From positions 57,969 to 121,968 of the forward strand of contig CAZFOD010000001.1 in the NCBI GenBank assembly GCA_964520545.1: 64,000 nt of DNA, in the 5' to 3' direction. A program made the translations under genes and the position numbers. The notes beneath the pieces were generated by a model. It was not told the DNA's origin, made no database searches, and was given only the letters and a program-made list of their open reading frames with translations. Of the stretch, positions 1-55,013 are shown in pieces. The number at the start of each line of letters is the position of its first letter. Positions within the stretch are counted from its first letter, which is position 1. This DNA comes from an uncultured Candidatus Saccharibacteria bacterium. GTDB taxonomy: Bacteria; Patescibacteriota; Minisyncoccia; Phycocordibacterales; CAIZLB01.

Positions 1-401
1 CCCCATGATCCCCCTTCTCAAGCGGTGCGTCGCTGGGAGAAGGGGGATAAAATCCCCTTAGTCATTTTTGTCCGAATGTAACTCGTATTCCAGCGCCTGG
101 CCAGCGTAAAGGAGCGAGTGAGGACTGCAGACTGAGGATACTTCGAACCATCACTATTGATAATTCAAATCCGCGATCGCTTGCGATCGTAAATTGGAAT
201 GAAGGTTTGCGGAGCGTGTCTCTCCGTTTCACCTCACGATTCAGTAAGGCTGCATAGCATGACCTATGCCCACCTGCTGAAAAGTGAAAGAAGAATGTTG
301 TGCCAACTACATTCATGTCGCGAGGGACGCACCCCCTCTGCGGAAAGCCATTTAGTTCTTTCGAAAAATATATATGGAGTATGAGTTTACAAAACCCTGC
401 T

Positions 402-460
402 CCGTACTGTCCGAGAATGTAGTTCTCGCTGATGAGCTCAAAAGAGCGAAACAGAATGTT
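402..460 (+). ncRNA. Hammerhead ribozyme (type III), copy 1. Stem I hairpin cgagaa-UGUAG-ttctcg (412-428), core CUGAUGA (429-435), stem II gctc-AAAA-gagc (436-447), GAAA (448-451). Stem III is 402-410 paired with 452-458. GUC cleavage triplet 409-411, predicted cut after C411
   Basis: All 11 invariant core nucleotides are present in the correct order and spacing (CUGAUGA...GAAA). A G10.1-C11.1 pair closes stem II. U410 can pair with A451, and the canonical GUC^ cleavage site is present. The stems covary with copy 2. Confidence 0.8.
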
Positions 461-484
461 CTTAAAAAGTAAGTTGTTTGGTTC

Positions 485-757
485 GTGCAATATGTCTGCA
501 ATTATTTGTCGATATATTGCATGAACCAAGTACTTCGTTTCTTGTTCGGCTCCCCGCAACGGGTCCTCACCACTGGAATCATAGGGTTCGTGGTGTGGGG
601 GATGGTAGACCCACGGTCGGTGAGCTTGCTCATCGCACTATGCTGGAATAATTTCTGGGAGGCTTTCGGGCCACTGTTCCAGATCTTGTTGCAACTCTTC
701 ATCGTGTGTGGAGTGATTTGGCTCTTTGTAAAAAGCCTTTTCAAGAAAACAAAATAG
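485..757 (+). CDS. Hypothetical small hydrophobic protein (90 aa, 2-3 predicted TM helices) encoded inside the ribozyme-bounded fragment. No recognisable RBS
   Basis: ORF track only. The translation is hydrophobic and Trp-rich. No SD-like sequence lies upstream, so this may be non-coding RNA instead. Confidence 0.25.
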   Translation: MQYVCNYLSIYCMNQVLRFLFGSPQRVLTTGIIGFVVWGMVDPRSVSLLIALCWNNFWEAFGPLFQILLQLFIVCGVIWLFVKSLFKKTK

Positions 758-882
758 AAGCTTACAACTTCCAGGTAGAAAAAAACTTCCTGCAACCAAA
801 CCAAATTGATTCGGCTTCGCACTGGCGGATCGCTTGTGCGGGTAGCGTGGCCACTCGGTCGACGCTTTGAACAGTCACTCGA

Positions 883-944
883 CTGTTCTCCTCTCGGAGT
901 GTAGCTCCGACTGATGAGTCCAAAAGGACGAAAGGAAAAAGCGG
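883..944 (+). ncRNA. Hammerhead ribozyme (type III), copy 2. Stem I tcggag-UGUAG-ctccga (894-910), core CUGAUGA (911-917), stem II gtcc-AAAA-ggac (918-929), GAAA (930-933). Stem III is 885-892 paired with 933-941 (imperfect). CUC triplet, predicted cut after C893
   Basis: Same invariant core as copy 1. Stems I and II carry different sequences from copy 1, but every change is compensatory (cgagaa/ttctcg versus tcggag/ctccga; gctc/gagc versus gtcc/ggac). Loops UGUAG and AAAA are identical in both copies. Confidence 0.8.
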
Positions 945-1071
945 CAAATATATTTTCTTAAAAGTACTCACAAGGCCCCAATTTTACGTGCATAGAACAT
1001 TGACAAATCAATAATCATGTGCTAGGTTTCGATCAGGAATTTCAACCAAAACACAAGCTTTTTGACAATCT

Positions 1072-1365
1072 ATGAAAGACTACTACGCCACCCTAGGTGT
1101 TTCCCGACAGGCGTCAATTAATGATATCCGGAAGGCCTTTTGGGGCATCTCCCGGGAACATCATCCTGACGTTGCAAAAGACAAAGCGACTTCCGAAGAA
1201 AAATTCAAGGAAGCAAACGAAGCCAACGCAATACTTAGCGATCCGGAGAGACGTAGGGAATATGATGAGGCGCTCAGTAAAGCACTCATCACTGACTTAC
1301 CTTCTTCGGTCGCTCAAGTTGTCGGAGAATACTTCCGGCAATTCCATCCCGAAAACACAAAATGA
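1072..1365 (+). CDS. J-domain (DnaJ N-terminal domain) protein, 97 aa, with HPD motif
   Basis: KDYYATLGV...IRKAF..ISREHHPD...KFKEANEAYAILSDPERRREYD is a canonical J-domain with the HPD tripeptide. Local GC is higher than the genome background. Confidence 0.75.
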   Translation: MKDYYATLGVSRQASINDIRKAFWGISREHHPDVAKDKATSEEKFKEANEANAILSDPERRREYDEALSKALITDLPSSVAQVVGEYFRQFHPENTK

Positions 1366-1778
1366 CCCAAACAAAACTTAAAGAGCAACTCGCAGAATTG
1401 ATCCAGCTCGTCGATGCCTTTTTCAAGCGCGACACCGTGATCAGAGCTCGAGCTAGCTTCAACAGCCACCGTGCAGAAGTCCTCAAGCAAATCCCCGAAA
1501 TGGGTGAACTGCTCAGGGAATATCCTGCATATGGAGCTATCGCATTCCTGGGAAGATTCAAATTCACAGAGTGTGCCGAAGTCGATTCGCTCGCGAAGGA
1601 GAGCAGTGCACAATTACTGCAAACTATTCGCGACAAAAAGGTTGTTCAGTTGGAAGAAACTGCTCGGCCTGCCTGGTCCTTTCTCCTAGAGAGTGACATG
1701 GAAGCGTCCTGCGCTATCCTTGCTCTTTGCTTTATGGCAAGAAAGAACGCCAAGATTAAACAGGCACTTGTTGCCTAA
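1362..1778 (+). CDS. Hypothetical protein (138 aa), translationally coupled to the J-domain gene through an ATGA overlap
   Basis: ORF in a high-GC island with the start overlapping the upstream stop. No recognisable motif. Confidence 0.5.
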   Translation: MTQTKLKEQLAELIQLVDAFFKRDTVIRARASFNSHRAEVLKQIPEMGELLREYPAYGAIAFLGRFKFTECAEVDSLAKESSAQLLQTIRDKKVVQLEETARPAWSFLLESDMEASCAILALCFMARKNAKIKQALVA

Positions 1779-1804
1779 ACCACAAAACCAACCCAACAGA
1801 AATT

Positions 1805-2524
1805 ATGATCCAAATCGATGCTCTCGCAATCCGCGCGGCAGTAAACAGCGGCGACCTTCGGGCCGCCGAACACCAACTCGCCCTCATCGGCGATACGGTA
1901 GGTGATGATCAGCTCGCGCTGGTCGTAAAAGACCTCACTCCTGGCGAGGTAATGACCCTCGTCGGCGAAGGTGACTACTCGAAACCTTCGTTAGTCGTAC
2001 ACTTCATCTCCGCGGAGCAATTCCTCGGGGCTCTTGTACGCATTGGAGCAAAGTGGGGAAGAATCGGGGATAAGGACGATTACGGTCGCTTCCTCGGTGA
2101 ACTCACAGATCTTTTCCTTTCTGTTTTGCTCGTCATCGAGCCGCAGAAACGGAGGGAGCTACTGACCGCACTCATCGAGCACACCCTCGGTATGCGTTCG
2201 CTCATTTGTGTTGCGATCAGCGTCAAGGAGTACCTCCTGGACTATGATTCGCGCGCAGCTGAGCACGGCACCGTCGGCGAGTTGATGACATTTCTTGAGG
2301 ATGTTGATTACGACGCGTTCGTGACTATCCAAAAGAAGATTGCTTCGATGTGCCTCGAAAATGCTGAAGTGCATCTCGCCGAAGAAGGCGAAGAGTCAAT
2401 CAGCGAAAAACGGTGCCGTTGGTATCAGCGCCGTACATTGAACGCCCTTGTCGATGCCGCCATGAGGCTGGTCGAAAGCAAGCAACCCGAAGCTCCAAAA
2501 GACGAAATCTTCGGAGACGTTTAG
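1805..2524 (+). CDS. Hypothetical protein (239 aa), acidic
   Basis: ORF with protein-like composition in the high-GC island. No recognisable motif. Confidence 0.5.
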   Translation: MIQIDALAIRAAVNSGDLRAAEHQLALIGDTVGDDQLALVVKDLTPGEVMTLVGEGDYSKPSLVVHFISAEQFLGALVRIGAKWGRIGDKDDYGRFLGELTDLFLSVLLVIEPQKRRELLTALIEHTLGMRSLICVAISVKEYLLDYDSRAAEHGTVGELMTFLEDVDYDAFVTIQKKIASMCLENAEVHLAEEGEESISEKRCRWYQRRTLNALVDAAMRLVESKQPEAPKDEIFGDV

Positions 2525-2579
2525 CCAACCGAAACCCGCCCCGGCCGTTGAAAACACGGCCGGGGCATATCTTTACGAA

Positions 2580-3515
2580 ATGGAAACAACATTAGCAGTT
2601 ATCGAAGATCGTCATCCGATCACTGTGGCGATAGCTTGGGCTATTAAGCTTGAGTTGGTCACACCAGCTGGTGAGCAAACACTCATTGCGGATATGCAAG
2701 AGACGGTAACGGAGGCGACGAAGAAATTTGTCAATTTCGTCAATGTTGAATCGGTGCGTCAAGCACTCGATATCACCTTGGGTGTTCTCAGTTTGCCAGT
2801 CGCTCACTCGACGGGTGGAAAAATTAACCCTGAGGCGTGGGCGCAATACTTGCACGGTCGTAGCCTAAAAAAATTGGTTGCGGAAGCGCTCGCGCTGGTT
2901 AAGCCCATTGCGAATGCCCCGTTCGAGGCACAGTTCGAGGAATTCATCCCCGAAGAAGGGGCGTTAAGGAAGACCCTCATAGGGTATGCAACAGCTCGTG
3001 ATAAGAGTAGGAAAAACGTTTGGGCTGGATATGTGGATTTCTCCAGGGATCTTCACAGACAACAAGTTGGCGAGAAACGAAAAGAACTCGCTGACTGGCT
3101 CACTCGTGAATTGTTGAATTGTAGTTCTGAACATTGGTTCAGAGCTCAAATCCGAAAAGCTGGGAACAGTGATAACCCACCTAGCGTTCACGAGACAATC
3201 AACACGCTGATCCTACGGCACTGCTGCGGGTTATCAGTTAGTGGGAAGATCGAAGTGAAGAAGATGCAGTTCGAATGGTTACGAGAAGCTTTTGAAGCAG
3301 ACAAAGCCGTTTGGGTCGCGAAAGTTCGTCTGAAATATGACGCACTTTTCACTCGGATTCCAAAAGAACTCCGACAGTATCTTCTGCACACAGGTGGTGA
3401 CAAGTGGTTCAGTATCTACCTTTCTAAGGGTCCTCCCAAGGTCCCGAAGAAGTGGAACGATGCTGAATTACCGGGAATTACCGGTGTCTTCAGCTTCGAA
3501 ATGTTTGAGGATTAG
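2580..3515 (+). CDS. Hypothetical protein (311 aa)
   Basis: Long ORF in the high-GC island followed by an intrinsic terminator. No recognisable motif. Confidence 0.55.
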   Translation: METTLAVIEDRHPITVAIAWAIKLELVTPAGEQTLIADMQETVTEATKKFVNFVNVESVRQALDITLGVLSLPVAHSTGGKINPEAWAQYLHGRSLKKLVAEALALVKPIANAPFEAQFEEFIPEEGALRKTLIGYATARDKSRKNVWAGYVDFSRDLHRQQVGEKRKELADWLTRELLNCSSEHWFRAQIRKAGNSDNPPSVHETINTLILRHCCGLSVSGKIEVKKMQFEWLREAFEADKAVWVAKVRLKYDALFTRIPKELRQYLLHTGGDKWFSIYLSKGPPKVPKKWNDAELPGITGVFSFEMFED

Positions 3516-3530
3516 CATCCCTTATAACCA

Positions 3531-3566
3531 AAGCGCCGCCCGGCATGACCTGGCGGCGCTTTTTAC
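3531..3566. terminator. Rho-independent terminator, bidirectional (stem gcgccgcc/ggcggcgc plus T-run). Closes the island operon (+) and tig (-)
   Basis: 8-bp GC stem and 11-nt loop, followed by TTTTT on the + strand and a U-rich tract on the - strand. Confidence 0.7.
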
Positions 3567-3582
3567 TTTCCGATATTTTAAA

Positions 3583-4626
3583 TTATTTCTCTAACACCTC
3601 CCAAGCTTTTTCATTCAAGATCATAGTCTCGACATATATTGTTGCTCGCATCTTGTCCGCATCCTTATACATCTTCATGATTTGCTCTACTTCTTTGTTT
3701 ACTTCATCAGCAGGAGCTTCAAGCTTTTCTGCAATCGCAATCTGATTGAGAATGAGTTGTGTCTTTGCTCTTTTTTCAGCATCAGCAGTCCATTCTTCTC
3801 TCAACTGTTCAATTGTCTTGTTTGCGTGTCGAAGATAGCTTTCAATATCGAGTCCCATCTGTGCAACGTTAGAACCAAGTTCACTAATCATCTTGTTGAG
3901 TTCTGATTCTACAAGCATTTTAGGCATCTTGATTTCTGACTTCTCAATGATCGCTTCCATCGCTTTGAGTCGTTTGATATCTCGAGCCTTGTGTTCTTTT
4001 TCTGCTTTGATGCTTTCTGTAATTTTTGCTTTGAATGCATCAATGTTTTCGAATGCACCAAACTTCTTGATGAAATCATCATTCACCTCAGGAAGGGGAA
4101 GATCTCCGTGATCATGTGAGTGATCAGTTGGGTTTGCAATGTGATGATCGTTATGAGCAACTTGCTTTCGAAGTCCGTCGATTGTTTCTTCAACTTCTTT
4201 GTCAGTAACCTCAAGTGTTTCTTTAACTGACATGATTTCCTTAGCAACTTTTTTGTAGTCAGGAAGTTTCACTTCCGGCATGACAGCTGTTTTAATTTTG
4301 AAACCAAAAGCTTCGCCAGGAGCAACCTTTGTGATTGTCACTGCAGGTGATCCAAGAGGGGAGATCTTTGCATCCGTAACTATATCTCCATAGTGTTTTT
4401 CAAGAGCGAGTCGTCCTGCTTCTTCAAGAATCGCTACTTCTCCGAATCGATCGACAATTACTTTCTCTGGAATATGTCCTGGGCGAAAACCATCCATCTT
4501 TACACCACTTGAAATGTTTTTTAGAGCTTCTTCTCTAAAACCTTTTACAATATCTGAAGGAATTTCTCCTTCGATTTCATATTCACTTTCAGGAAGTGCT
4601 CCTTTTTTTATGATTGAGAATGACAT
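3583..4626 (-). CDS. tig: Trigger factor (ribosome-associated peptidyl-prolyl isomerase chaperone)
   Basis: 347 aa. The N-terminal ribosome-binding region and domain order are typical of trigger factor, and the gene is adjacent to ppa. Confidence 0.7.
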   Translation of the reverse strand: MSFSIIKKGALPESEYEIEGEIPSDIVKGFREEALKNISSGVKMDGFRPGHIPEKVIVDRFGEVAILEEAGRLALEKHYGDIVTDAKISPLGSPAVTITKVAPGEAFGFKIKTAVMPEVKLPDYKKVAKEIMSVKETLEVTDKEVEETIDGLRKQVAHNDHHIANPTDHSHDHGDLPLPEVNDDFIKKFGAFENIDAFKAKITESIKAEKEHKARDIKRLKAMEAIIEKSEIKMPKMLVESELNKMISELGSNVAQMGLDIESYLRHANKTIEQLREEWTADAEKRAKTQLILNQIAIAEKLEAPADEVNKEVEQIMKMYKDADKMRATIYVETMILNEKAWEVLEK

Positions 4627-4628
4627 TG

Positions 4629-5153
4629 TTATTTATTGAACTTAGCTTTGTATGCTGATACCGACTTGTCGAATGCTGCTCGCGCTGCCGCTGCATCTTT
4701 GAATCCATGAGTTTCTACAACTTTGTTTTGAAGCTTTTTGTAAGTAAGGAAGAAGTGGTCGATTTCTTTGAGAGTGTGAGGGTTTACATCAGCAAGATCT
4801 TTCACATTGTCCCATCGAGGATCTTCTTCAGGTACAGCGATGACCTTTGCATCTGAATCACCACCGTCTACCATATCGAGTACAGCAACAGGTCGAACAC
4901 GTACCATTATTCCAGGAACAAGCGGGTATGTTGTAAGTACAACTACATCCAACGGATCACCGTCTTCCCAGAGTGTCTGTGGAACGAATCCATAGTCAAA
5001 AGGATAGTCTTGTGAAGTATGGAGAACACGATCAAGTGCTATGAGACCAGTTTTTTTGTCGATCTCATATTTATTTTTTGATCCCTTATTGATCTCGATG
5101 ATTGTGTTGATGCTTTCCGATGTTCCTGATTCTATATCATGCCAAAGGTTCAT
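4629..5153 (-). CDS. ppa: Inorganic pyrophosphatase, family I. Start trimmed to MNLWHDIE
   Basis: YEIDKKTG, DGDPLDVVVL, and a D(x)DxK-like acidic cluster match family I PPase. The track ORF has a 30-codon basic extension overlapping nusA, so the internal ATG at 5151-5153 is preferred. Confidence 0.8.
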   Translation of the reverse strand: MNLWHDIESGTSESINTIIEINKGSKNKYEIDKKTGLIALDRVLHTSQDYPFDYGFVPQTLWEDGDPLDVVVLTTYPLVPGIMVRVRPVAVLDMVDGGDSDAKVIAVPEEDPRWDNVKDLADVNPHTLKEIDHFFLTYKKLQNKVVETHGFKDAAAARAAFDKSVSAYKAKFNK

Positions 5154-5178
5154 ATGTTTTTTATGTTTATCTTTTAAT

Positions 5179-6414
5179 TTAAGCAGATGCTTCTTCTGTT
5201 GTAACCTCTTCCTTTGTGTCAGCTGTCTCAAGAGTTTCAATTCTTTCTTCAGGTTTTACATCAGCATTTATCTCATCAACTTCTCCAGAGTCGGCGACAA
5301 CACCTTTCACTGATTGGATATCAATTCTCCAGCCTGTAAGTTTAGCTGCAAGTCGAACATTCTGTCCTCCCTTACCGATTGCGAGTGACTGCTGATCTTC
5401 TGCAACCTCAACAACCGCAGTCTTTTCTGTTTCGTTAAGTTTAATATCAATGACTTTTGCAGGAGAAAGAGATTCTTTGATGAATTCTGCTGCATCTTCT
5501 GACCATTCGATGATATCAATTTTCTCACCACCGAGTTCACTTGTTACTGTGTTTACTCGAACACCACGCTGTCCAACCATTGATCCTACTGGATCAATGT
5601 GAGAATCAGCAGCAAATACAGCAATCTTAGATCGAGCACCAGCTTCACGTGCAATCGCTTTTACTTCAACAGCACCAGAAACAATTTCTGGAACTTCAAT
5701 CTTGAAAAGTTCTGAGAGGAACTTTGGGTGTGAGCGTGATAGTCGAAGGAAAATACCTCGAGGTGTTTCTTCTACACGCATGAGGTACATTCGAAGTCTT
5801 TCACCTTGTCGGTAGTGTTCACCAGGGATTTGTTCTTCATATGGGAGCATTCCAGTAGCTCGGCCCATGTCGATGAAGACATTTCCTCGCTCTTGTCGCT
5901 GTACTGTTCCTGAAATGATTTCTCCTTCTCGCTTTCCGAATTCACCAAGGACAGAAACCTTTTCAGCTTCTCGAATCTTCTGGATGATGACCTGCTTTGC
6001 AGTTTGTGCGGCGATTCGGCCGTAATCTTCCTTTTCTTCAAGAGGAAAGACCATTTCTTCGGCAACCTGAACGTCTTTTTTGATCTTTCGAGCGTTATCA
6101 ATGAGGATATGTCGCTCTTCGTTGAAGAATACCTTCTCGTCAGTAGTTGGTTCTGCTCCTTCTACAGGGGTAGGGAGTTCACTCTCATCAAAAACTACCT
6201 GATCTGGGTCCACAACGATCTTTACCTGGTAAAAATCAGCCTTACCTGTATTTATATCGAATTTAGCCCGTACAAACTGGTCGCGTCGGCCCCATTCCTT
6301 CTTGTATGCAGTAGCTAGAGCCATTTCAATTGCCTCAAGAATCTTTTCACGAGGAATACCCCGCTCTTCTTCAAGCTGATCTAATACTGAGTGAATTACT
6401 TTAAGATCTATCAT
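5179..6414 (-). CDS. nusA: Transcription termination/antitermination factor NusA (S1 plus KH domains, acidic C-terminal tail)
   Basis: The N-terminal MIDLKVIHSVLDQLEEERGIP and the S1/KH region architecture match NusA. 411 aa. Confidence 0.85.
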   Translation of the reverse strand: MIDLKVIHSVLDQLEEERGIPREKILEAIEMALATAYKKEWGRRDQFVRAKFDINTGKADFYQVKIVVDPDQVVFDESELPTPVEGAEPTTDEKVFFNEERHILIDNARKIKKDVQVAEEMVFPLEEKEDYGRIAAQTAKQVIIQKIREAEKVSVLGEFGKREGEIISGTVQRQERGNVFIDMGRATGMLPYEEQIPGEHYRQGERLRMYLMRVEETPRGIFLRLSRSHPKFLSELFKIEVPEIVSGAVEVKAIAREAGARSKIAVFAADSHIDPVGSMVGQRGVRVNTVTSELGGEKIDIIEWSEDAAEFIKESLSPAKVIDIKLNETEKTAVVEVAEDQQSLAIGKGGQNVRLAAKLTGWRIDIQSVKGVVADSGEVDEINADVKPEERIETLETADTKEEVTTEEASA

Positions 6415-6778
6415 ATATTTGGTTGTTATTTAATTGTATCTATCTATATTCTTAGCCATCTTATGGCTCAATAGAGCCTTTTCTGGCAAAAAATTAAGCC
6501 CGCCGGGAGGCGAACTTCTGATGTACACATTATATATGTATATGGGGAATTGTCAACGGATTATATCGTTGGAAAAGTAAGGTTTGATACCAATGGTTTG
6601 TAACAGTAAGTTACCTTTCTGGGTTATCGGTTGTTTGGGTAATTCTACGGGATTTCAACAGCAATGTTTAAAGAATCTTTCTACCATTTGAGATGTTTAT
6701 CTTTTTAAATTTAAAATAGTAATTTAAAAAAGTGAAATAAAGTTTTATACACTCATATGTAAGGCTTTACTGTAAAAA

Positions 6779-6791
6779 CTTTGGTATAATT
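6779..6791 (+). promoter_or_regulatory. Extended -10 promoter (TGgTATAAT) for the pilus operon, inside a 375-bp AT-rich divergent intergenic region (nusA to pilB)
   Basis: TTTGGTATAATTG, with TATAAT at 6785-6790 about 25 nt upstream of the pilB ATG. Confidence 0.45.
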
Positions 6792-6813
6792 GAAACACAA
6801 ACTGTTCTCAAAA

Positions 6814-8589
6814 ATGTTCATCGATCCTGTACAAATGAAGAAGTTGATATCTGACTCCGGCCTCGTGGCACCGGCTGATGTCATTGCTGCAGAAAAAGCA
6901 GTGAAGGAGGCGGAGGCGCAGAAGAAAAAGATGAATCTCGGTGAAGCTTTGATGATCGCGGGTAAAATCTCTGAGGATGACTATCGTCGCATGCAGGCAT
7001 ATCTGATGGCGATTCCATTCGTTGATCTCAAAACACAGAAACTTAGTTTCGATGTACTCGCTTTAATTCCTGAGCCGATTGCACGTAGTCATAACATTGT
7101 TGCAATAAAGAAAAAGGGGGACACGCTTGAAGTGGCGATGCTCGACTCTGATGATCTTTCAGCTATTGATTTCGTTAAAAAGAAGACGGGACTCAAAATA
7201 TTGCCTCGCATGACAAATACGGAGTCAATGAAGGCTGCGCTCATACAATATCAAAAGAGTCTTAAAGCTGATTTCGGAGATATCATTCAGCAGGAGGCAG
7301 CAACACTTAAAATGGTTGCTCAAGATGGAGCAGCTGCAGGTGAAGAAGCATCTGCAGACGATCTTAAGAAATTAGCGGAAGATCTTCCTGTTGTACGTAT
7401 TGTTGATACGTTGCTTAAGCATGCAGCTATTCAAGGTGCTTCAGATATTCACATCGAACAAACAGAGTTTGAAGTTGTGGTTCGATATCGTATCGATGGA
7501 ATATTGCGTGATGCTATGATCTTGCCGAAAAGTGCAGGTTCAAGTATTACAGCTCGTATCAAGGTGCTTTCAAACCTTAAGCTTGATGAGAAACGATTGC
7601 CTCAGGACGGAAGATTCCGTATTGAGCTTAATGATGAAAAGATTTCATTTCGAGTCTCTATATTACCAACATACTTTGGAGAGAAGACGGTTATGCGATT
7701 GTTGCGAGAGACTGTTTCAGGATTTTCACTTGAGAGCCTTGGTTTTCACGGACCTGCGCTAGATGTGGTGCATGAAGGAACAAATATGGCAGAAGGTCTC
7801 CTCCTCACAACAGGACCAACAGGTTCTGGTAAGACAACAACTTTGTATACAGTCCTCGATATATTGAACAAGCCAGATGTAAATATTTCTACCGTAGAGG
7901 ACCCTGTTGAATATCAGATGAAACGTGTTAATCAGACTCAGGTAAAACCTGAAATCGGATTTACTTTTGCTAATGGTCTTCGTTCTCTTTTGCGACAGGA
8001 TCCAGATGTGATTATGGTAGGAGAAATTCGAGACAATGAAACGGCATCTCTTGCCATTAATGCCGCTCTTACAGGTCACCTTGTGCTTTCAACACTCCAC
8101 ACCAATTCCGCAGCAGGTGCAATTCCTCGACTTATCGATATGAAGTGTGAGCCGTTTCTTTTGGTTTCAACACTCAAGGTCATCATCGCTCAGCGACTTG
8201 TTCGAAAACTTTCAAAAAACAAGGAAAAATATCTTTTAACTAAAGATGAGCTAGCCTCTATTGGAAAAAAGATTGATATGGAGCGTGTGCTTAAGTCTCT
8301 TAAGGATGAGAAGATTGTTGATCAAAAGATTGAGTGGAAGGACGTCCCTTTCTACAAACCAAAGCCAGACTCTGAATCAGAAGACGGATATCATGGACGA
8401 GTTGGTATTCATGAAGTACTTCGTATGAGTTCGGCTATTAAAGATCTAGTTATAAAAGGAGGTACGTCGGATGAGATTCAGGAGCAGGCAAGAAAGGAGG
8501 GAATGCTTACGATGATTGAAGATGGAATCTTTCAGGCTGTGCAGGGGCTGACATCGATAGAAGAAATTCTTCGTGTGGTTTCGGAATAG
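6814..8589 (+). CDS. pilB: Type IV pilus assembly ATPase PilB (GspE family). ATG at 6814; an alternative TTG at 6790 is used by the ORF track
   Basis: Walker A GPTGSGKTTT, a GspE N-terminal domain, and His-box motifs. Followed by pilC. Confidence 0.85.
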   Translation: MFIDPVQMKKLISDSGLVAPADVIAAEKAVKEAEAQKKKMNLGEALMIAGKISEDDYRRMQAYLMAIPFVDLKTQKLSFDVLALIPEPIARSHNIVAIKKKGDTLEVAMLDSDDLSAIDFVKKKTGLKILPRMTNTESMKAALIQYQKSLKADFGDIIQQEAATLKMVAQDGAAAGEEASADDLKKLAEDLPVVRIVDTLLKHAAIQGASDIHIEQTEFEVVVRYRIDGILRDAMILPKSAGSSITARIKVLSNLKLDEKRLPQDGRFRIELNDEKISFRVSILPTYFGEKTVMRLLRETVSGFSLESLGFHGPALDVVHEGTNMAEGLLLTTGPTGSGKTTTLYTVLDILNKPDVNISTVEDPVEYQMKRVNQTQVKPEIGFTFANGLRSLLRQDPDVIMVGEIRDNETASLAINAALTGHLVLSTLHTNSAAGAIPRLIDMKCEPFLLVSTLKVIIAQRLVRKLSKNKEKYLLTKDELASIGKKIDMERVLKSLKDEKIVDQKIEWKDVPFYKPKPDSESEDGYHGRVGIHEVLRMSSAIKDLVIKGGTSDEIQEQARKEGMLTMIEDGIFQAVQGLTSIEEILRVVSE

Positions 8590-8605
8590 ATTTAAGTATC
8601 ATTAG

Positions 8606-9820
8606 ATGAAATTTTCATACACAGCAAAAAAAGCAAACGGAGAAGAATACACATCTGTTATGGATGTTGCTGATAAGGGTACTTTTTTTCGCGAACTTCG
8701 AAAACTTGGAGAGACACCTGTTACGTTTAACGAATCGGGGGAACATCGTGCATTCAACATAGAAGTTAATCTCGATTTCTTGAAACGTATCAAGCCGATG
8801 GACAAGATTACGTTTGCTCGAAACATAAGCGGTATGCTCGAGGCTGGGTTATCTTTATCTCGAGCTCTTGGGGTTATTGAAAAGCAAACAAAGAGTAAGA
8901 AGTTAAAAGCTATTTACAAGAATCTTAACGATAGCATCAGTGGAGGAAAAACATTTCATGAATCTTTAGCGATGGAACCATCGGTATTTTCTACCTTATT
9001 CGTATCGATGGTAAAGGCAGGGGAAGAAGGCGGTACTCTTGCTGAATCTTTGAAGCATCTTGCTTCTCAGATGGAAAAAACGTATCAGATACAAAAGAAG
9101 GTAAAGGGTGCCATGATATATCCTGCCGTTATTCTCGGTGTCATGCTCATTATCGGAGTACTAATGATGTTGTTGGTAGTTCCAAACCTTGCCAAGACCT
9201 TTAACGATCTTAAGACTCCATTACCAACGAGCACAAAGATTGTGATAGGGCTCTCGGATTTTGCTCTGAATCATTATCTAATCCTTCTTTTGATTGTTGC
9301 AGCACTAGGTGCTGGAATTTACTATGCTATGAAAACTACTCTGGGAAAGAAGGCTTTAGACTTTAGTTCACTCCGTATACCTGTAATCGGTACAATAATT
9401 AAAGAATCTAACTCTGCAAGAACAACGAGAACTCTTTCATCTTTACTTTCATCAGGTGTCGATCTTGTTACAGCGGTTCGTATTACAGGTGAAGTAATGC
9501 AAAACACGTACTACAAAGATGTTTTACAGCGTACAGAGAAGATCGTTGAGAAAGGAGAACCAATCTCTACTGTTTTTGTACAAGAAGAAAAGCTATATCC
9601 AATTTTCGTCGGTGAGATGATGAGTGTTGGAGAAGAAACTGGAAAGCTTGCATCTATGCTCATTGGTGTTGCTAGTTTCTATGAGAATGAAGTAGAACAA
9701 AAGACAAAAGATATGTCGACCATCGTTGAGCCGTTTCTCATGGTTATGATTGGAGCGGGAGTAGGATTCTTTGCGGTATCGATGATAACACCGATGTATT
9801 CGGTGATGAATAATATATAA
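8606..9820 (+). CDS. pilC: Type IV pilus inner-membrane platform protein PilC (GspF family)
   Basis: Two GspF-type repeats and multiple TM segments. Immediately downstream of pilB. Confidence 0.8.
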   Translation: MKFSYTAKKANGEEYTSVMDVADKGTFFRELRKLGETPVTFNESGEHRAFNIEVNLDFLKRIKPMDKITFARNISGMLEAGLSLSRALGVIEKQTKSKKLKAIYKNLNDSISGGKTFHESLAMEPSVFSTLFVSMVKAGEEGGTLAESLKHLASQMEKTYQIQKKVKGAMIYPAVILGVMLIIGVLMMLLVVPNLAKTFNDLKTPLPTSTKIVIGLSDFALNHYLILLLIVAALGAGIYYAMKTTLGKKALDFSSLRIPVIGTIIKESNSARTTRTLSSLLSSGVDLVTAVRITGEVMQNTYYKDVLQRTEKIVEKGEPISTVFVQEEKLYPIFVGEMMSVGEETGKLASMLIGVASFYENEVEQKTKDMSTIVEPFLMVMIGAGVGFFAVSMITPMYSVMNNI

Positions 9821-9821
9821 T

Positions 9822-10292
9822 ATGAAGCAGGTGCTCTTAAGAAAAAAAGGTTTTAGTCTTGTGGAACTAGTGATTATAATCGCAATGACTGCCGTTATTG
9901 CAGCTGTAGTATTCTTTTCATTTCGAGGGTTTGCAAATTACCAAGTTCTCGATAAGGAAACAGATATCGTGCAATCATATGTTGATAAGGCTCGAGTAGA
10001 AGCGTTGAATTCGAAGAGCTTTGCAGACTTTGGTATTCGTTTTGCTTCTACGTCGGTTACTCTTTTTCAGGGTTCTGCATATGCCGCTTCGACCTCCAAC
10101 CTTGTGCGCAATCTTCCTTCTGGAGTTCGAATATCTACAATTTCTCTTACCGGTGGGGTATCGGATATGTATTTTAATAATGTAACAGGTGAGCCAAATG
10201 CCACGGGGACAATTACTTTTCAGCTCACGAGCACCCCTAGTACTACAAAATCTATAATAATTTACGGGACGGGACTATCTGAAGTTCGCTAA
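9822..10292 (+). CDS. Type IV prepilin (N-terminal cleavage/methylation motif KGFSLVELV), likely the major pilin
   Basis: Class III signal peptide G|FSLVE with Glu at +5 and a hydrophobic helix. Confidence 0.75.
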   Translation: MKQVLLRKKGFSLVELVIIIAMTAVIAAVVFFSFRGFANYQVLDKETDIVQSYVDKARVEALNSKSFADFGIRFASTSVTLFQGSAYAASTSNLVRNLPSGVRISTISLTGGVSDMYFNNVTGEPNATGTITFQLTSTPSTTKSIIIYGTGLSEVR

Positions 10293-10296
10293 AGGT

Positions 10297-10788
10297 ATGA
10301 ATAAAATAAATTTACAATCTACAAGAGGAATGAGTTTGATTGAGGTTGTTATCGCCGCGGCAATTATCGGCAGCTCTGTAGTTTTTATCATGGGAATTTA
10401 TAGTGGACTCACAAAACTTTCTTATAGAAACACCGCACGGATTCAGTCGGCAATGCTTGCAGAAGAGGGGATAGCTGCAATCAAGACAATGAGAGATTCT
10501 GGATGGACATCAAGAATTGCTTCGCTTTCAACAACGACGACATACAGCTTGTATTGGACAGGTTCAGTGTGGCAAGCAACTACGTCTTCACCGATTATTG
10601 ACGGTCAGTTTTACCGTACATTTACAATCACTGGAGTATCGAGAGATATAGATGCGGATATTGTTACGAGTGGTGGAACTTTTGATCCAAACTCAAAAAA
10701 GGTAACCGTTTCTGTTTCTTGGGCAGATAATGGGGCAACTTCAACTAAGTCTCTCGAAGCGTACATATTTAATGTTTTCAATAATTAA
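10297..10788 (+). CDS. Type IV prepilin-like minor pilin (RGMSLIEVV)
   Basis: Prepilin cleavage motif with Glu at +5. Confidence 0.7.
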   Translation: MNKINLQSTRGMSLIEVVIAAAIIGSSVVFIMGIYSGLTKLSYRNTARIQSAMLAEEGIAAIKTMRDSGWTSRIASLSTTTTYSLYWTGSVWQATTSSPIIDGQFYRTFTITGVSRDIDADIVTSGGTFDPNSKKVTVSVSWADNGATSTKSLEAYIFNVFNN

Positions 10789-10789
10789 T

Positions 10790-11323
10790 ATGAATTATAT
10801 TTCTAAAAAAAATAAAAGGGGTTTGTCAAAAGGATTCTCTCTCGTTGAGACAATCATCTATATATTTATATTAACACTCCTTCTCGTTGGTATTGTTAAT
10901 TCAACTTTGCTATTGGCTAAGAGCTATCGCAGTGTGAAAGCCGTTCGATCTATTGAAAGTTCAGCTATTTCTTCAATGGATAGAATGACGAGGGAAATTA
11001 AAGATGCAACAAGTGTTAATACCGGGGCGAGTAGCTTAAATGTTAACCCTGGCGTTTTAAGTCTCAATGCAACCAATGCTTCGGGAACAGCTGAGGTATT
11101 AAGGTTCTATGTGTCGAGCGGTAAAATAATGATGGATAGGGACGGGGTCAGTGTTGGTCAACTTACGTTTTCAGATTCTAATATCACAACATTAGTATTT
11201 CGCTCCATATCAACCTCGACTTCGGAGGCGGTGAAGATTGAAATGGCAATTCAAAGTGGAACTTCAACCTCTTTTATAACAAAGAACTTTTACGATACAG
11301 CTATATTACGTAGTTCATATTAA
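10790..11323 (+). CDS. Type IV prepilin-like minor pilin (KGFSLVETI). Start trimmed to MNYISKK
   Basis: Prepilin motif G|FSLVE. The track ORF starts 60 nt earlier inside the previous gene. Confidence 0.7.
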   Translation: MNYISKKNKRGLSKGFSLVETIIYIFILTLLLVGIVNSTLLLAKSYRSVKAVRSIESSAISSMDRMTREIKDATSVNTGASSLNVNPGVLSLNATNASGTAEVLRFYVSSGKIMMDRDGVSVGQLTFSDSNITTLVFRSISTSTSEAVKIEMAIQSGTSTSFITKNFYDTAILRSSY

Positions 11324-44660: not shown

Positions 44661-47471
44661 ATGGAACAACGCGGTTTAACATACGAAGGTAAGCAATTTA
44701 GTTCTCCTGAGGAAGAACTTCAATATTTACGACAAGTTGTCGCTAGTAAGGAACGCGGTCTTAGCTCTATTGGTGAAAAGAAAGAGCGTGAAGCAATAAT
44801 TGCAGAAGAACTTTCTACATACAGCAGACAGCAAATGGATAAGGTGTTGCATGAGAGCTACAAGATGCCTGCTCACGAACAGCGAGAGATTGTTCTTGAA
44901 CTTTCTCCTGAGCCTCATGATAAGAAAATAGAAGAATTGCTTTCTGTGATGTATGAGCGCGGAGTGCTGAATGCTTTAGCTGTTGCTGGTGCGTTCAATA
45001 ATCCTCATATCGATGACGACTTCCACCGATTCCTTGTTGAATATATAAAGAAGGGGTTGCCGACACCTGGGCTTAAAGAGACTTTACCCATAGCTAAGGC
45101 TTTGAAACATACTCTGTACGAAGTTTCATTACCAGAGGCAAAGAAAGATGATCAGAAGAAGGTGTTGAAGGAAATGCTTTCATCTATGGAGCAATTCTAC
45201 TCAGGTATGCTTTCTGTTTCAGGTGGTCGCGAGACTGCTGAGGAGAACCAGTTCTCGCTGGAGCTTGCAGTTGCAGAGGGTGGTGAAGAGTTTGTTTTCT
45301 ATGTATCAGTACCTGACAGTAAAGCTGGGCTTTTTGAAAAACAGTTTCTCTCCATATTCTCGAATGCAAAAATAGTTGAAAAGAAGGATAGCTACAACGT
45401 CTTTAATGTCGACGGTTTTTCTGTTGGAGCTGAAGCTGAACAGACAAAGAATCCCATATTTCCAATTAAGCAATATGAACAATTTGATTACGATCCTTTG
45501 AACGTAATATTGAATACATTGTCAAAGATTGAAAAAGATGGGGAAGGGGCATCAATACAAATCATTTTCAATCCAGTTGGTGATTACTACACAAAGCTTT
45601 ACAAAGACGCTCTTGATGAAATCAACAAAGGTACAAGTGTTAAGAAGGCTATCGATATCCGCCATAGTATATGGGGAGAGTTTACAAAAGTTGCTGGGGA
45701 AATGGCTAAGGATATCGCCAAGGAAGCAGTGACAAGTGGTAAGAAGGATGAAAAGAAAGATAAGCCAATTGATCAGATTGCTGTCGAGCAAATCACTGCG
45801 AAAATCTCAAGCCCAATAGCTGAAACCAACATCCGTATTGTCGCTTCTGCAGCCAATCGCCCTCGTGCAGAACATATTCTTTCTGATATGGAAGCGGCCT
45901 TTAATCAATTTGAGAATCCACTAGGCTCAGGATTGAAATTTAAAAGAAAGGAGGGTGGGGAGCTTAATGAGTTGTTCCATAACTTTAGTTATCGCCTGTT
46001 CGATAAGCGAAAGGCACTCCCTGTGTCTTTGCGAGAGTTGACCACCGTCATGCATTTTCCAGTTGAAAGTGTTGTAAGTTCATCTCAACTTAAACAGTCG
46101 AAAGCAGGAACAGCTTCTGCACCGATTGGATTGCCGAAGCAGGGGATTTTCCTTGGAACAAACAAGCATCGTAATACGGAAACAAAGATATATATGAGTA
46201 AGGAGGACAGATTACGTCACTTCTATGCAATTGGACAAACAGGTACAGGTAAATCCACCATGTTGAAAAACATGATTATTCAAGATATCAAAAATGGAGA
46301 GGGAATATGCTTCATTGATCCACACGGCTCCGATGTTCAGGATATCTTGGCACACATTCCTCCAGAGCGCTACGATGATGTCATATATTTTGATCCGTCT
46401 CATGTTGATCGGCCAATGGCACTCAACATGCTCGAATACAATCGAGATTTCCCTGAACAAAAGACATTCGTCGTAAACGAACTTTTTAGCATCTTCCAGA
46501 AGCTGTACGGAGGTGTGCCCGAATCTATGGGTCCAATGTTTGAACAATATTTCCGAAACGCAACAATGCTTGTGATTGAAGACCCGGATAGTGGTTGTAC
46601 ATTGCTCGATGTTTCTCGAGTAATGGCTGTTAAGAGTTTCCGTGATATGAAGATTTCGAAGTGTAAGAATCCAATAGTCGTACAGTTCTGGAAAGAGATT
46701 GCTGAAAAGGCAGGAGGGGAAGGGTCTTTGCAGAACATGGTGCCATATATCACAAGTAAGTTCGATGTGTTCCTTGCAAACGACATCATGCGACCAATCA
46801 TTGCTCAGGAGAAGTCGAGCTTTAATTTCAGAGAGATTATGGACAGCAAGAAAATCTTGCTTGTAAATCTTGCAAAAGGAAGACTGGGGGATATTAACTC
46901 ATCTCTCATTGGTCTCATTCTCGTCGGTAAAATTCTCATGGCAGCACTTTCACGTGTTGATTCATTCGGTAAAGATATGAATCCTTTCTATCTCTACATC
47001 GACGAATTTCAAAATATCACCACACCTTCCATCTCAACCATTCTTTCAGAAGCCCGAAAGTACAAACTTTCTCTAAACATTGCACATCAGTTCATCGCGC
47101 AGTTGGATGAGAATATAAAGGATGCAGTGTTTGGTAACGTTGGATCTATGGCGGTGTTTCGAGTGGGAAGTGAAGACGCTGAGTTTTTGCAGAAACAGTT
47201 TGAACCAGTATTTACCTCAAGCGATATTATGAATATCGATAACATGAATTGCTACTTGAAAATGCTTTCAGATGGAAAGCCAACTCGTCCTTTCAATATT
47301 GAATTCACATGGCCAGAGCCTGGTAACAAAAAGATTGTTGAGAAAATAAAGGAATTGTCGTATCTAAAGTTTGGACAAGACAGGGAAGAGGTTGAAGCTG
47401 CTATTTTGGAGAAGTATAAAAAAGAGCCTGTTCCCGAAAGACCTGCGAGAGAAAATCCGTTTGGTGTATAA
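44661..47471 (+). CDS. Large P-loop NTPase of the HerA/FtsK/VirB4-TraG superfamily (DUF87-like: Walker A GQTGTGKST followed by FIDPHG; Walker B LYIDEFQN) with a roughly 480-aa N-terminal domain of unknown function
   Basis: The motif order matches HerA/TraG-type ATPases. It occupies the position where infA-rpmJ-rpsM-rpsK-rpoA-rplQ usually follow map. Confidence 0.6.
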   Translation: MEQRGLTYEGKQFSSPEEELQYLRQVVASKERGLSSIGEKKEREAIIAEELSTYSRQQMDKVLHESYKMPAHEQREIVLELSPEPHDKKIEELLSVMYERGVLNALAVAGAFNNPHIDDDFHRFLVEYIKKGLPTPGLKETLPIAKALKHTLYEVSLPEAKKDDQKKVLKEMLSSMEQFYSGMLSVSGGRETAEENQFSLELAVAEGGEEFVFYVSVPDSKAGLFEKQFLSIFSNAKIVEKKDSYNVFNVDGFSVGAEAEQTKNPIFPIKQYEQFDYDPLNVILNTLSKIEKDGEGASIQIIFNPVGDYYTKLYKDALDEINKGTSVKKAIDIRHSIWGEFTKVAGEMAKDIAKEAVTSGKKDEKKDKPIDQIAVEQITAKISSPIAETNIRIVASAANRPRAEHILSDMEAAFNQFENPLGSGLKFKRKEGGELNELFHNFSYRLFDKRKALPVSLRELTTVMHFPVESVVSSSQLKQSKAGTASAPIGLPKQGIFLGTNKHRNTETKIYMSKEDRLRHFYAIGQTGTGKSTMLKNMIIQDIKNGEGICFIDPHGSDVQDILAHIPPERYDDVIYFDPSHVDRPMALNMLEYNRDFPEQKTFVVNELFSIFQKLYGGVPESMGPMFEQYFRNATMLVIEDPDSGCTLLDVSRVMAVKSFRDMKISKCKNPIVVQFWKEIAEKAGGEGSLQNMVPYITSKFDVFLANDIMRPIIAQEKSSFNFREIMDSKKILLVNLAKGRLGDINSSLIGLILVGKILMAALSRVDSFGKDMNPFYLYIDEFQNITTPSISTILSEARKYKLSLNIAHQFIAQLDENIKDAVFGNVGSMAVFRVGSEDAEFLQKQFEPVFTSSDIMNIDNMNCYLKMLSDGKPTRPFNIEFTWPEPGNKKIVEKIKELSYLKFGQDREEVEAAILEKYKKEPVPERPARENPFGV

Positions 47472-54407: not shown

Positions 54408-54920
54408 TTACGCCTTTTCTATAAGAATAGTCATGCCTTTTGGACTTTTGACTGCTGGGCCAGCTACATTGTAGTCGACCGTAAGCAGTTTAAGGAGGCG
54501 GTCCATTCTCTCTCTGAGGAACTTCTCATCGAGATACTTGGTTCGGCCGGGGAGGAAAAGGTCCATCTTGATTCGATGGCCTTCCGTGAGCCACTCTGAG
54601 GCCTTTTTAGCCTTGAGAGTGAGATCGTGCTCGCCGGTACCGATTTTGACCTGGAGACTCTTGACTTCAACAACCTTCGCTTTAGCTTTCGAAGCCTTTA
54701 GCTTCTTGTTTTCGTCGTATTGGAATTTACCATAATCCATGATTTTTGCAACCGGTGGATTGGCTTTTGGAGAGATTTCGATTAGATCAAGACCAGCGTC
54801 CCGAGCCCTAGATAGAGCCTCGGAAATGCTGATAACCCCGATGTTTTCGCCCTCTGCTCCGATAACTCGGACTTCTGGGACCCTGATTTGATGATTGATG
54901 CGTACTGAAGGAATCGACAA
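54408..54920 (-). CDS. infC: Translation initiation factor IF-3 (non-ATG start, TTG)
   Basis: RINHQIRVPEVRVIGAEGE...LDLIEISP matches IF-3. The start codon reads TTG. Confidence 0.85.
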   Translation of the reverse strand: MSIPSVRINHQIRVPEVRVIGAEGENIGVISISEALSRARDAGLDLIEISPKANPPVAKIMDYGKFQYDENKKLKASKAKAKVVEVKSLQVKIGTGEHDLTLKAKKASEWLTEGHRIKMDLFLPGRTKYLDEKFLRERMDRLLKLLTVDYNVAGPAVKSPKGMTILIEKA

Positions 54921-54985
54921 TGTGGTGTGATTTAGTAAGGGTAATATAGCACAAAAGTAAAGAATATCAAAGGAAAGAGGGGAAT

Positions 54986-55013
54986 TTTGTCTGATAAATT
55001 GACTTATCGATGA
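54986..55013 (+). promoter_or_regulatory. Sigma70-like promoter TTGACT-16-TATAGT
   Basis: Upstream of the 55080 gene, whose RBS is AAAGGAG plus a TTG start. Confidence 0.5.

Follow-up and report, generated by a model that had tools for sequence, protein, structure and literature searches.

The closest described system is the atcJABC ("adaptation to cold") operon of Shewanella oneidensis, which was described in 2019 (SO_1850, SO_1849, SO_1848, and SO_1846; Maillot et al.; PMC6715715). In Atc operons, a stand-alone J-domain protein takes DnaK to a dedicated client (PMC6715715; bioRxiv 10.64898/2026.09.07.749886). The Atc literature identifies D37 and D60 of S. oneidensis AtcB as essential for RNA polymerase (RNAP) binding. 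Overproduced AtcB is toxic, AtcJ and AtcC relieve this toxicity together with DnaK, and in Shewanella deletion of atcB results in cold sensitivity. [quoted passage not shown] Systems with a degenerate or absent PX7W motif are counted as functional Atc systems, and an AtcA lacking the acidic tail is known for Verrucomicrobium sp. GAS474 (bioRxiv 10.64898/2026.09.07.749886). A second described system of relevance is the Salmonella rsr-yrlBA-rtcBA operon, a bacterial Ro60 (Rsr)/Y-RNA locus (Chen et al. 2014, PMC4201824).

The window, which is the whole 64,000-nucleotide stretch of DNA analysed here, carries four same-strand genes at 1072-3515, with ORF positions and sizes as given in the preliminary description. 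This block is very probably a non-canonical atcJABC operon of the type described for Verrucomicrobium sp. GAS474. As such, it represents a known system, Atc, in a new host, a Patescibacteria (CPR) genome. The phylum is taken from one member, named "Patescibacteria group bacterium", of a ClpP cluster at 90% identity, and no GTDB representative genome corresponded to the host species. The features of the locus are listed below in window coordinates, except for the island, which is given on the full contig L001 (L001 coordinate = window coordinate + 7421).

L001 ~3681-10985, + strand: GC-rich accessory island of ~7.3 kb, the right-hand part of which is window 1-3565
404-457, + strand: hammerhead ribozyme 2, type III topology (Rfam Hammerhead_3, 42.7 bits, E = 3.8e-7)
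521-757, + strand: small hydrophobic ORF of 78 aa that separates the second and third hammerheads, coding uncertain
886-939, + strand: hammerhead ribozyme 3 (Rfam Hammerhead_3, 38.9 bits, E = 4.3e-6)
1000-1028, + strand: putative atcJ promoter, TTGACA (1000-1005), 17 nt, TGcTAGGTT (extended -10, hexamer 1023-1028)
1072-1365, + strand: atcJ, 97 aa, matching Pfam DnaJ and NCBIfam AtcJ NF050028
1362-1778, + strand: atcA, 138 aa, matching the second gene of other cassettes
1805-2524, + strand: atcB, 239 aa, matching NCBIfam AtcB NF047889
2538-2566, + strand: GC-rich hairpin of 11 bp between atcB and atcC, without a U-tract
2580-3515, + strand: atcC, 311 aa, matching the fourth gene of other cassettes
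3530-3565, + strand: intrinsic terminator ending the atc operon, hairpin 3530-3562 followed by UUUUU

The window operon shares the gene order J-A-B-C with S. oneidensis AtcJABC. In both, AtcJ has an HPD J-domain, a length of ~95 aa, and a C-terminal tail of ~21-27 aa, AtcB is of similar size with two conserved aspartates 23 positions apart, AtcC has ~300 aa, and AtcA, AtcB, and AtcC are without known domains. In contrast, the sequence similarity is marginal (NCBIfam AtcB, E = 0.005; NCBIfam AtcJ, E = 1.4e-7 over residues 1-86), a Phe takes the position of the PX7W Trp with a longer Pro-to-aromatic spacing, and the acidic disordered tail of AtcA is missing. Moreover, the host is a Patescibacterium and not a gamma- or beta-proteobacterium, and the operon shows the signs of horizontal acquisition set out below and lies within a Ro60/hammerhead island. 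With non-canonical Atc the window operon has in common an AtcJ without PX7W and the retention of both AtcB aspartates, and with GAS474 an AtcA that lacks the acidic tail (bioRxiv 10.64898/2026.09.07.749886). Those relatives of the window AtcB and AtcC that carry a name come from Verrucomicrobiota MAGs.

All four genes have homologues at 11 other loci, where they form a J-A-B-C cassette in the same order and on the same strand, and the named relatives bearing it are mostly Verrucomicrobiota. In the cassettes of L002-L015, a short DnaJ protein of 86-98 aa is followed by proteins of 136-174, 228-240, and 285-313 aa. Outside the window's own lineage, BLASTP against the window proteins gives E values from 1e-8 down to 1e-66 for these cassettes, and the identity to the Verrucomicrobial ones is 24-44%. 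The family is small, with 157 clusters among 1.84 billion. The three proteins after the J-domain protein had been presented as unknowns with no recognisable motifs. This holds for Pfam, PHROGs, and PADLOC, the scans of which returned nothing meaningful for them, but not for NCBIfam and homology searches, which together with the cassette context mark them as probable homologues of AtcA, AtcB, and AtcC. For the families of AtcA and AtcC, NCBIfam scans matched no Atc model, and Pfam likewise; these two assignments are probable ones, based on cassette position and on the literature that calls the Verrucomicrobial cassettes Atc systems. The window proteins also lie far below the NCBIfam equivalog cut-offs (16 vs 440 bits for AtcB and 32 vs 150 bits for AtcJ). 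PDB sequence searches with AtcA, AtcB, and AtcC profiles found nothing below E = 0.003, and Foldseek of the AF2 models of AtcB and AtcC against PDB found nothing at E <= 0.001, with TM-scores < 0.3, so the fold offers no functional lead.

AtcJ is a class-C J-domain protein. Pfam DnaJ covers residues 3-65 of its 97 (E = 1.3e-21), the HPD motif is located at residues 31-33, and H30, H31, P32, and D33 do not vary among 11 sequences. Pfam detects no Gly/Phe, Zn-finger, or C-terminal domains, and the DnaJ and CbpA NCBIfam models match at positions 1-70 only, which bears out the original reading of a standalone J-domain protein. Its assignment as a full-length DnaJ or CbpA (class A/B) was rejected, as the protein ends at residue 97 after the J-domain. 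The earlier suggestion that such a protein would bring host DnaK to a specific client agrees with the Atc literature (PMC6715715; bioRxiv 10.64898/2026.09.07.749886). The C-terminal tail of ~27 aa contains ...TDLPSSVAQVVGEYFRQFHP..., which is predicted from its sequence to be the AtcC-binding peptide, and the tail motif DL[KP]x3AxLVxEYFxQF is conserved in 11 cassettes. When the tail is aligned with the S. oneidensis AtcC-binding peptide pep21 (NNVIVTDPNSAMRELWDQFYP), the z value is 5.8 and F88 falls under the essential Trp. The canonical PX7W motif is absent from the tail (LPSSVAQVVGEYFRQFHP), in which the Pro is present and there is no Trp. This absence marks a non-canonical subclass and does not exclude the protein from Atc, because the literature accepts systems with degenerate or absent motifs as functional.

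HscB, a dedicated class-C J-domain co-chaperone encoded beside its client IscU, follows the same logic, in which a minimal J-domain and a short specificity element in the client operon direct Hsp70 to one target. In contrast to HscB, the window AtcJ is without the HscB C-terminal domain (the sole TIGR00714 match, E = 4.7e-4, falls on the J-domain), and the predicted client is an RNAP-binding protein complex and not an Fe-S scaffold.

The NCBIfam AtcB model, which the window protein matches marginally, matches 57 of the 115 AtcB family members (lowest E, 8.7e-30), and no other family competes for them. The homologue P0010 is matched at E = 1.5e-7 and has a precomputed Pfam PF27486 AtcB_N annotation. 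Residues 2-129 of the window AtcB align to model positions 5-131, and D34 and D57 therefore fall on D37 and D60. Across the 115 AtcB sequences, G33, D34, and D57 are the sole columns with at least 90% conservation, and the spacing between D34 and D57 is 23 residues. By analogy, the window AtcB is assumed to be the RNAP-binding subunit, with D34 and D57 as the predicted contact residues. Its AF2 model is all-alpha with a pLDDT of 81. AtcA is 31-55% identical to the second cassette gene product in other lineages and 94% identical in L002, and, unlike canonical AtcA, it has no acidic tail at the C-terminus. AtcC is 24-41% identical, over nearly its full length, to the fourth gene product of 10 other cassettes, and its profile search matches Chthoniobacteraceae-type hypothetical proteins only. 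The AF2 model of AtcC is all-alpha with a pLDDT of 72, and its dN/dS against L003 is 0.13. By analogy with the Shewanella protein, AtcC is the predicted adaptor for the AtcJ tail and AtcB.

The GC content of the atc block is 0.502, compared to 0.424 for window 3600-64000, and the atc genes have GC3 values of 0.47-0.61, where 46 other ORFs average 0.368 (sd 0.050), with z = +2.0 to +4.9. The compositional contrast claimed for the block is thus upheld in both GC and GC3, but position 1072 is not where the enrichment starts. In the full-contig GC profile, the GC-rich tract spans L001 ~4750 to 10950, extends to the left of the window, and takes in the Ro60 gene (GC 0.546). Verrucomicrobial cassettes have the same GC as their flanks, whereas the window cassette lies 7-8 points above its host.

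The block is present at the same locus in three close lineages, namely L001, L002, and L003. It is absent from four more distant relatives, where tig adjoins rsmE (L017, L018, and L019) or clpP (L021) within the conserved gene order T2SS-nusA-tig-rsmE-clpP-rny. The block is accessory, being absent from this tig|rsmE-clpP-rny junction, and it is also compositionally foreign. Foreign GC3, an empty syntenic site in related genomes, and closest kinship with sequences from other phyla are clear signs that the atc operon was horizontally acquired. A recent, transient insertion is not supported, given the divergence of AtcC together with tig under purifying selection. Between L001 and L003, AtcC has a dS of 1.19 and tig a dS of 1.10. 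The dN/dS of the atc genes is 0.13-0.39, and this and the matching dS values show the atc genes to be functional. Between L001 and L002, dS is 0.06-0.18 for island genes and 0.11-0.49 for flanking genes. Between these sister lineages an allelic swap has affected the J-domain, and the predicted AtcC-binding tail has been retained.

The operon is the right-hand portion of a larger island, bounded by terminators at L001 3645-3680 and at the end of the atc operon. The left 3.7 kb lies outside the window and contains a promoter, hammerhead 1, and the Ro60 gene. The "ribozyme pair" of the preliminary description is therefore part of a set of three hammerheads on the full contig. All three score below the Rfam gathering threshold (38.9-43.7 vs 48.5 bits); their cores are intact, and stems I and II show compensatory changes between copies. 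Hammerhead 2, with predicted cleavage after C411, is conserved in L002 and belongs to the context outside the atc operon. Hammerhead 3 is identical in L002, the divergence between L001 and L002 starts directly 3' of it, and its predicted cleavage after C893 would place the 5' end of the atc mRNA 178 nt upstream of atcJ. The 78-aa ORF between them is 97% identical in L002, with a dN/dS of 0.11 based on very few changes, and has no family match in Pfam, PHROGs, or PADLOC. As in known Ro60/Y-RNA loci, the Ro60 orthologue is followed by ~1.1 kb of non-coding sequence. In this spacer an Rfam scan matched no family, including no Y RNA, and two repeated units fold no better than shuffled sequence. 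In contrast to the Salmonella rsr locus, the island is without RtcB and RtcA genes and without an Rfam Y-RNA match, and has three hammerheads and a downstream atc operon. The combination of Ro60 and three hammerheads beside an atc operon is unusual; a literature search for a link between Ro60 and hammerheads turned up neither a hammerhead-punctuated nor an atc-adjoining Ro60 locus.

The whole island could be read as a horizontally transferable composite stress module, in which Ro60 and atc are co-transcribed, cut by hammerheads, and moved together between phyla, but this is unlikely. In such a module, one transcript from the consensus promoter left of the window would be cut by the three hammerheads into three pieces: the Ro60 mRNA with candidate partner RNAs, the small membrane-protein RNA, and the atc mRNA. 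Ro60-based RNA quality control and DnaK-dependent control of RNAP would then be co-regulated, and the J-domain of Atc would be an exchangeable module with the AtcC-binding tail fixed.

It is distinctly improbable that the cassette is a toxin-antitoxin-like or anti-phage module, in which AtcB would poison RNAP, AtcC, AtcJ, and DnaK would restrain it, and titration of the chaperone by infection or proteotoxic stress would release it. The toxicity of overproduced AtcB and its relief by the partner proteins with DnaK are in line with this idea, as are the patchy distribution with signs of horizontal transfer, a dN/dS above that of core genes, the allelic J-domain swap, and toxin-antitoxin genes near the cassette in L005 (HicAB) and L009 (VapB/PIN and Unstab_antitox). 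However, the four proteins have no PADLOC-DB 2.0 match at E <= 1, most other cassette neighbourhoods consist of housekeeping genes, and the cold sensitivity of the Shewanella atcB deletion speaks for a positive physiological role of AtcB.

The preliminary description regarded the block as phage or mobile cargo. On such a reading, the J-domain protein would hijack host DnaK for a process of the phage or element, and the hammerheads would mark a prophage remnant. The searches run against it, and it now appears highly improbable. No relatives of AtcB or AtcC were found in 50,697 phage records, 72,556 plasmids, or IMG/VR (two scans), and the island contains no integrase, transposase, or structural gene. 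Its borders, including the left one outside the window, show no tRNA and no att-like direct repeats. The same hammerhead core and stem II are present in 36 IMG/VR viral contigs, but 0 of these 36 loci encode Ro60, Atc, or any flanking protein. PHROG families with a J-domain exist, the block is accessory with a foreign composition, and the island dS below that of the flanks between two lineages suggests recombinational spread. Nevertheless, where the genome is rich in GC the cassette matches it in composition and is situated among ordinary chromosomal genes, and here it has stayed at a single site of the chromosome over a dS of ~1.2. A prophage or integrative element was rejected as a candidate, since it would call for an integrase or transposase, flanking repeats or a tRNA target, and homologues in phages or plasmids, none of which were found. 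Finally, a native, vertically inherited housekeeping operon with high GC from amino-acid composition or expression level only is scarcely credible even though the locus is shared by three lineages under purifying selection and published work holds Atc to be vertically inherited. Four relatives lack the operon at the syntenic site, its GC excess is greatest at third codon positions, the sequences closest to it belong to other phyla, mostly of high GC, and the family is tiny.

For the horizontally acquired atcJABC operon, the protein-protein contacts and the physiological role can be inferred by homology with the Shewanella system. AtcB would bind the host RNAP through its conserved aspartates, and AtcC would bind both AtcB and the C-terminal AtcJ tail. 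Through its HPD J-domain, AtcJ would turn on the ATPase of host DnaK, which would remodel or limit the AtcB-polymerase complex and in this way tune transcription under cold or other stress. No dnaK gene lies within the 64-kb window. Transcription of the operon could start at the upstream promoter of the island, hammerhead 3 then releasing the atc mRNA, or at a weak promoter belonging to the operon itself. The candidate at 1000-1028 is weak, was read from the sequence, was not reported by a consensus promoter scan, and lies in a region that is replaced in L002.

The locus places Atc in a new phylum, in a reduced-genome Patescibacterium, and provides evidence that it was transferred horizontally, in contrast to the vertical inheritance favoured by the literature. 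This suggests that the RNAP-binding component is transplantable across phyla and makes the locus a natural experiment on which Atc parts need to fit the host. With it, the known range of dedicated DnaK co-chaperone networks widens to include CPR bacteria.

The distances between the genes are -4 nt (J-A), 26 nt (A-B), and 55 nt (B-C). Translational coupling had been proposed for the entire block, but an overlap exists only between atcJ and atcA, in ATGA at 1362-1365. The hairpin in the B-C gap has a folding energy of -25.9 kcal/mol (z = -4.6) and may have a role in mRNA stabilisation or processing; in other cassettes, such as that of L005, atcB and atcC abut. The hairpin of the terminator has -23.8 kcal/mol (z = -5.2). 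The strong bidirectional terminator described earlier is correct for the + strand with its UUUUU, whereas the - strand has the same hairpin with a weaker U-run. The terminator serves tig, on the - strand, as well, the two transcription units being arranged tail-to-tail.

The GC-rich block at window positions 1072-3515 carries four forward-strand genes, with coordinates and lengths exactly as in the preliminary description, and is identified by homology as a predicted atcJABC operon, the "adaptation to cold" (Atc) system of Shewanella oneidensis:

1072-1365, + strand: atcJ, 97 aa
1362-1778, + strand: atcA, 138 aa
1805-2524, + strand: atcB, 239 aa
2580-3515, + strand: atcC, 311 aa

The block has a GC content of 0.502 against 0.424 in the remainder of the window, in line with the contrast noted before, and the GC3 of its genes is 0.47-0.61 (z = +2.0 to +4.9 relative to 46 other window ORFs, mean 0.368, sd 0.050). 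The first protein is indeed a standalone J-domain protein, with Pfam DnaJ at residues 3-65 (E = 1.3e-21), HPD, and nothing besides. The proposed translational coupling applies to atcJ and atcA, which overlap, but the remaining junctions are gaps of 26 and 55 nt. In the 55-nt atcB-atcC spacer lies a GC-rich hairpin of 11 bp that lacks a U-tract (window 2538-2566, -25.9 kcal/mol, z = -4.6); in other Atc cassettes, no spacer separates the two genes. A strong terminator closes the block as described: its hairpin (3530-3562; -23.8 kcal/mol, z = -5.2) precedes a UUUUU run and faces the 3' end of tig.

The last three proteins, previously listed as unknowns, can be named AtcA, AtcB, and AtcC by cassette homology, and AtcB also by NCBIfam and by the precomputed Pfam family PF27486 (AtcB_N) of its homologue P0010. 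Of 5.8 billion proteins, only two are closely related to AtcC, and AtcB has distant relatives at 34-39% identity. Every locus encoding a relative carries a cassette of a short DnaJ followed by proteins of 136-174, 228-240, and 285-313 aa, and by BLASTP each of the four window proteins has a homologue at the same cassette position in L004, L005, L009, and L010-L015. For P0010 the NCBIfam "cold adaptation protein AtcB" model gives E = 1.5e-7, and for the window protein 0.005; the AtcJ model matches residues 1-86 of the window J-protein at 1.4e-7. An exhaustive HMMER search of 1.84 billion representatives with the AtcB-like alignment yields a small family of 157 clusters (E <= 1e-3); 57 of its 115 full-length members match NCBIfam AtcB (best 8.7e-30), and the NCBIfam scan of these 115 gives no competing family. 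Only G33, D34, and D57 are at least 90% conserved in the 115-sequence alignment. According to the literature, S. oneidensis AtcB binds RNA polymerase via two conserved aspartates, D37 and D60. D34/D57 coincide exactly with these, because the NCBIfam alignment places window residues 2-129 onto model positions 5-131 (offset +3) and the spacing is 23 residues in both proteins. The AtcJ tail, conserved across cassettes as DL[KP]x3AxLVxEYFxQF, aligns to the AtcC-binding peptide published for S. oneidensis AtcJ, NNVIVTDPNSAMRELWDQFYP, at 5.8 sd over shuffled peptides, with F88 beneath the essential Trp. Cassette homology, the AtcB and AtcJ model matches, the aspartate positions, and the AtcJ tail together carry the operon assignment; AtcA and AtcC are assigned through cassette position and transitive homology to the canonical proteins.

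The system family is already known, having been described first in 2019, and the block belongs to its known non-canonical subclass. Like the non-canonical systems of Verrucomicrobium sp. GAS474 and Solidesulfovibrio (bioRxiv 10.64898/2026.09.07.749886), it has an AtcJ without the strict PX7W motif of canonical AtcJ and an AtcA without an acidic tail, and its named relatives are Verrucomicrobiota. AlphaFold2 models of AtcB (pLDDT 81, pTM 0.77) and AtcC (pLDDT 72) are all-helical and resemble nothing in the PDB, which agrees with the "no known domain" of the Atc literature. By homology to the Shewanella system, whose host is cold-sensitive without J, B, or C (PMC6715715; bioRxiv 10.64898/2026.09.07.749886), the J-domain of AtcJ would stimulate DnaK and its tail would tightly hold AtcC, which in turn would bind AtcB. 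AtcB would bind RpoC and in excess inhibit RNA polymerase, and AtcJ-AtcC-DnaK would keep the inhibited complex limited. Direct observation of the block itself is confined to conserved sequence determinants and purifying selection (dN/dS = 0.19-0.39 against the close lineage L002; for AtcC, 0.13 at dS 1.19 against the close lineage L003). Some CPR genomes carry dnaK.

The GC-rich four-gene island of the preliminary description makes up the right-hand third of a ~7.3-kb island that the window border cuts, because high GC and further features extend to the left. In the retrieved source contig (L001; L001 coordinate = window coordinate + 7421), raised GC spans ~4750 to 10950:

L001 3645-3680: terminator behind a TrmB-family gene
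L001 4347-4374: near-consensus sigma-70 promoter in an AT-rich tract (TTGACA 4347-4352, 16 nt, TATAAT 4369-4374)
L001 4495-4542: 15-codon ORF (MTYTVNKRGEVIVLK) with a strong Shine-Dalgarno, 3' of the promoter and upstream of hammerhead 1
L001 4690-4743: hammerhead 1, left of the window, before Ro60
L001 4854-6698: Ro60 orthologue (TROVE + vWA_Ro60), 724 nt left of the window start
L001 6699-7824: non-coding DNA 3' of Ro60, ~1.1 kb, right end at window 1-403
window 404-457: hammerhead 2, behind the non-coding spacer
window 886-939: hammerhead 3, before atcJ

The island transcript likely starts at the sigma-70 promoter. GC within the island is highest in the Ro60 gene (0.546; GC3 0.590), and the 5' leader of this gene (L001 4744-4860) forms a very stable, long stem burying the start codon (-55.7 kcal/mol, z = -8.0), which may be an autoregulatory or Ro-binding element. 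The ~1.1 kb spacer contains two ~430-nt units that partly repeat each other. Both have a hairpin plus TTAGT(T)CATTTTTGTC as well as a GAGGAC..CTGAGGNTACTTCGAAC box, and they are candidates for Ro60 partner RNAs; an Rfam scan of the spacer gives no Y RNA match, and the units fold no better than shuffled sequence.

The ribozyme pair noted upstream of the block consists of hammerhead matches with complete cores (E ~1e-7 to 1e-6), yet, like hammerhead 1, both are below the Rfam gathering score. All three lie on the same strand, vary by compensatory changes in stems I and II, and are conserved in L002 (3/3). Hammerhead processing of the transcript and a weak atcJ promoter at 1000-1028 are predicted. 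The predicted 482-nt product of cleavage at hammerheads 2 and 3 carries, exactly between the two ribozymes, a 78-aa hydrophobic ORF (window 521-757, +) with no family match and 97% identity in L002. Between hammerhead 2 and this small ORF, L002 has an insertion of ~970 nt (6980-7958), in which two short genes are called (97 and 86 aa) and a fourth, partial hammerhead-like copy lies at 7729-7760.

L001 and L002 DNA is identical up to and including hammerhead 3, then unalignable or highly divergent over the 5' UTR and J-domain coding part (window 940-1290; L001 8361-8710 vs. L002 8420-8700), and returns to ~95% identity at the C-terminal tail codons of atcJ; the difference elsewhere is ~6.5%. 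The J-domain is 51% and the tail 83% identical in protein, and dS is 1.18 over the whole gene. The J-domain and its upstream region have thus been swapped for another allele, and the conserved AtcC-binding tail has remained with atcABC.

The host ClpP falls into one 90%-identity cluster with MES3005689.1 ("Patescibacteria group bacterium"), and on this one named member the host is assigned as a probable Patescibacterium. In the relatives that a metagenome scan with trigger factor finds (48-65% identity), the gene order T2SSF-T2SSE-nusA-(ppa)-tig-rsmE-clpP-rny is conserved. At the syntenic tig junction, Ro60 and the Atc genes are absent from all four (0/4): tig adjoins rsmE in L017, L018, and L019, and clpP in L021. 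The three close lineages L001, L002, and L003 all have the island at one and the same site, with a tig identity of 99% for L002 and 88% for L003. Between L001 and L003, dS is 1.19 for AtcC and 1.10 for tig, and these matching values indicate that the operon has been inherited and maintained since before their split. Between L001 and L002, the island dS (Ro60 0.06, AtcB 0.07, AtcA 0.09, AtcC 0.18) is below that of most flanking genes (0.11-0.49), which suggests later exchange of the island by recombination. Cassette GC equals flank GC in high-GC genomes and is 7-9 points above the flanks in two low-GC genomes, the window lineage and L010. Outside matches reach at best 38-60% identity (L010, a pond MAG). 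Syntenic absence, the lineage dS pattern, and GC contrast together argue for horizontal acquisition of the operon from a GC-richer donor.

The acquisition part of the earlier reading as phage or mobile cargo is thus supported, but its phage or mobile part is not, since the searches found no phage, plasmid, or integrase link of the island. Among IMG/VR viral contigs, 36 contain an identical hammerhead core and stem II, and none of these carries Ro60 or Atc.

The literature argues for vertical inheritance of Atc, and the evidence for horizontal transfer is contrary to it; also new are Atc in the phylum Patescibacteria and an atc operon in the company of Ro60 and three hammerheads. bioRxiv 10.64898/2026.09.07.749886 mentions neither Patescibacteria nor horizontal transfer, and a limited literature search found no bacterial Ro60-hammerhead link.

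Elsewhere in the window (44661-47471, and 54408-55610), a 936-aa TraG/TrwB-like type IV coupling protein and two further ORFs with the highest GC3 outside the island (~0.50-0.51) may mark other acquired DNA. On the reverse strand, window 62674-63079 holds a standard one-piece tmRNA gene (Rfam 86.5 bits) with the tag peptide AKARQAVASPFFAVKDFAFATARA.
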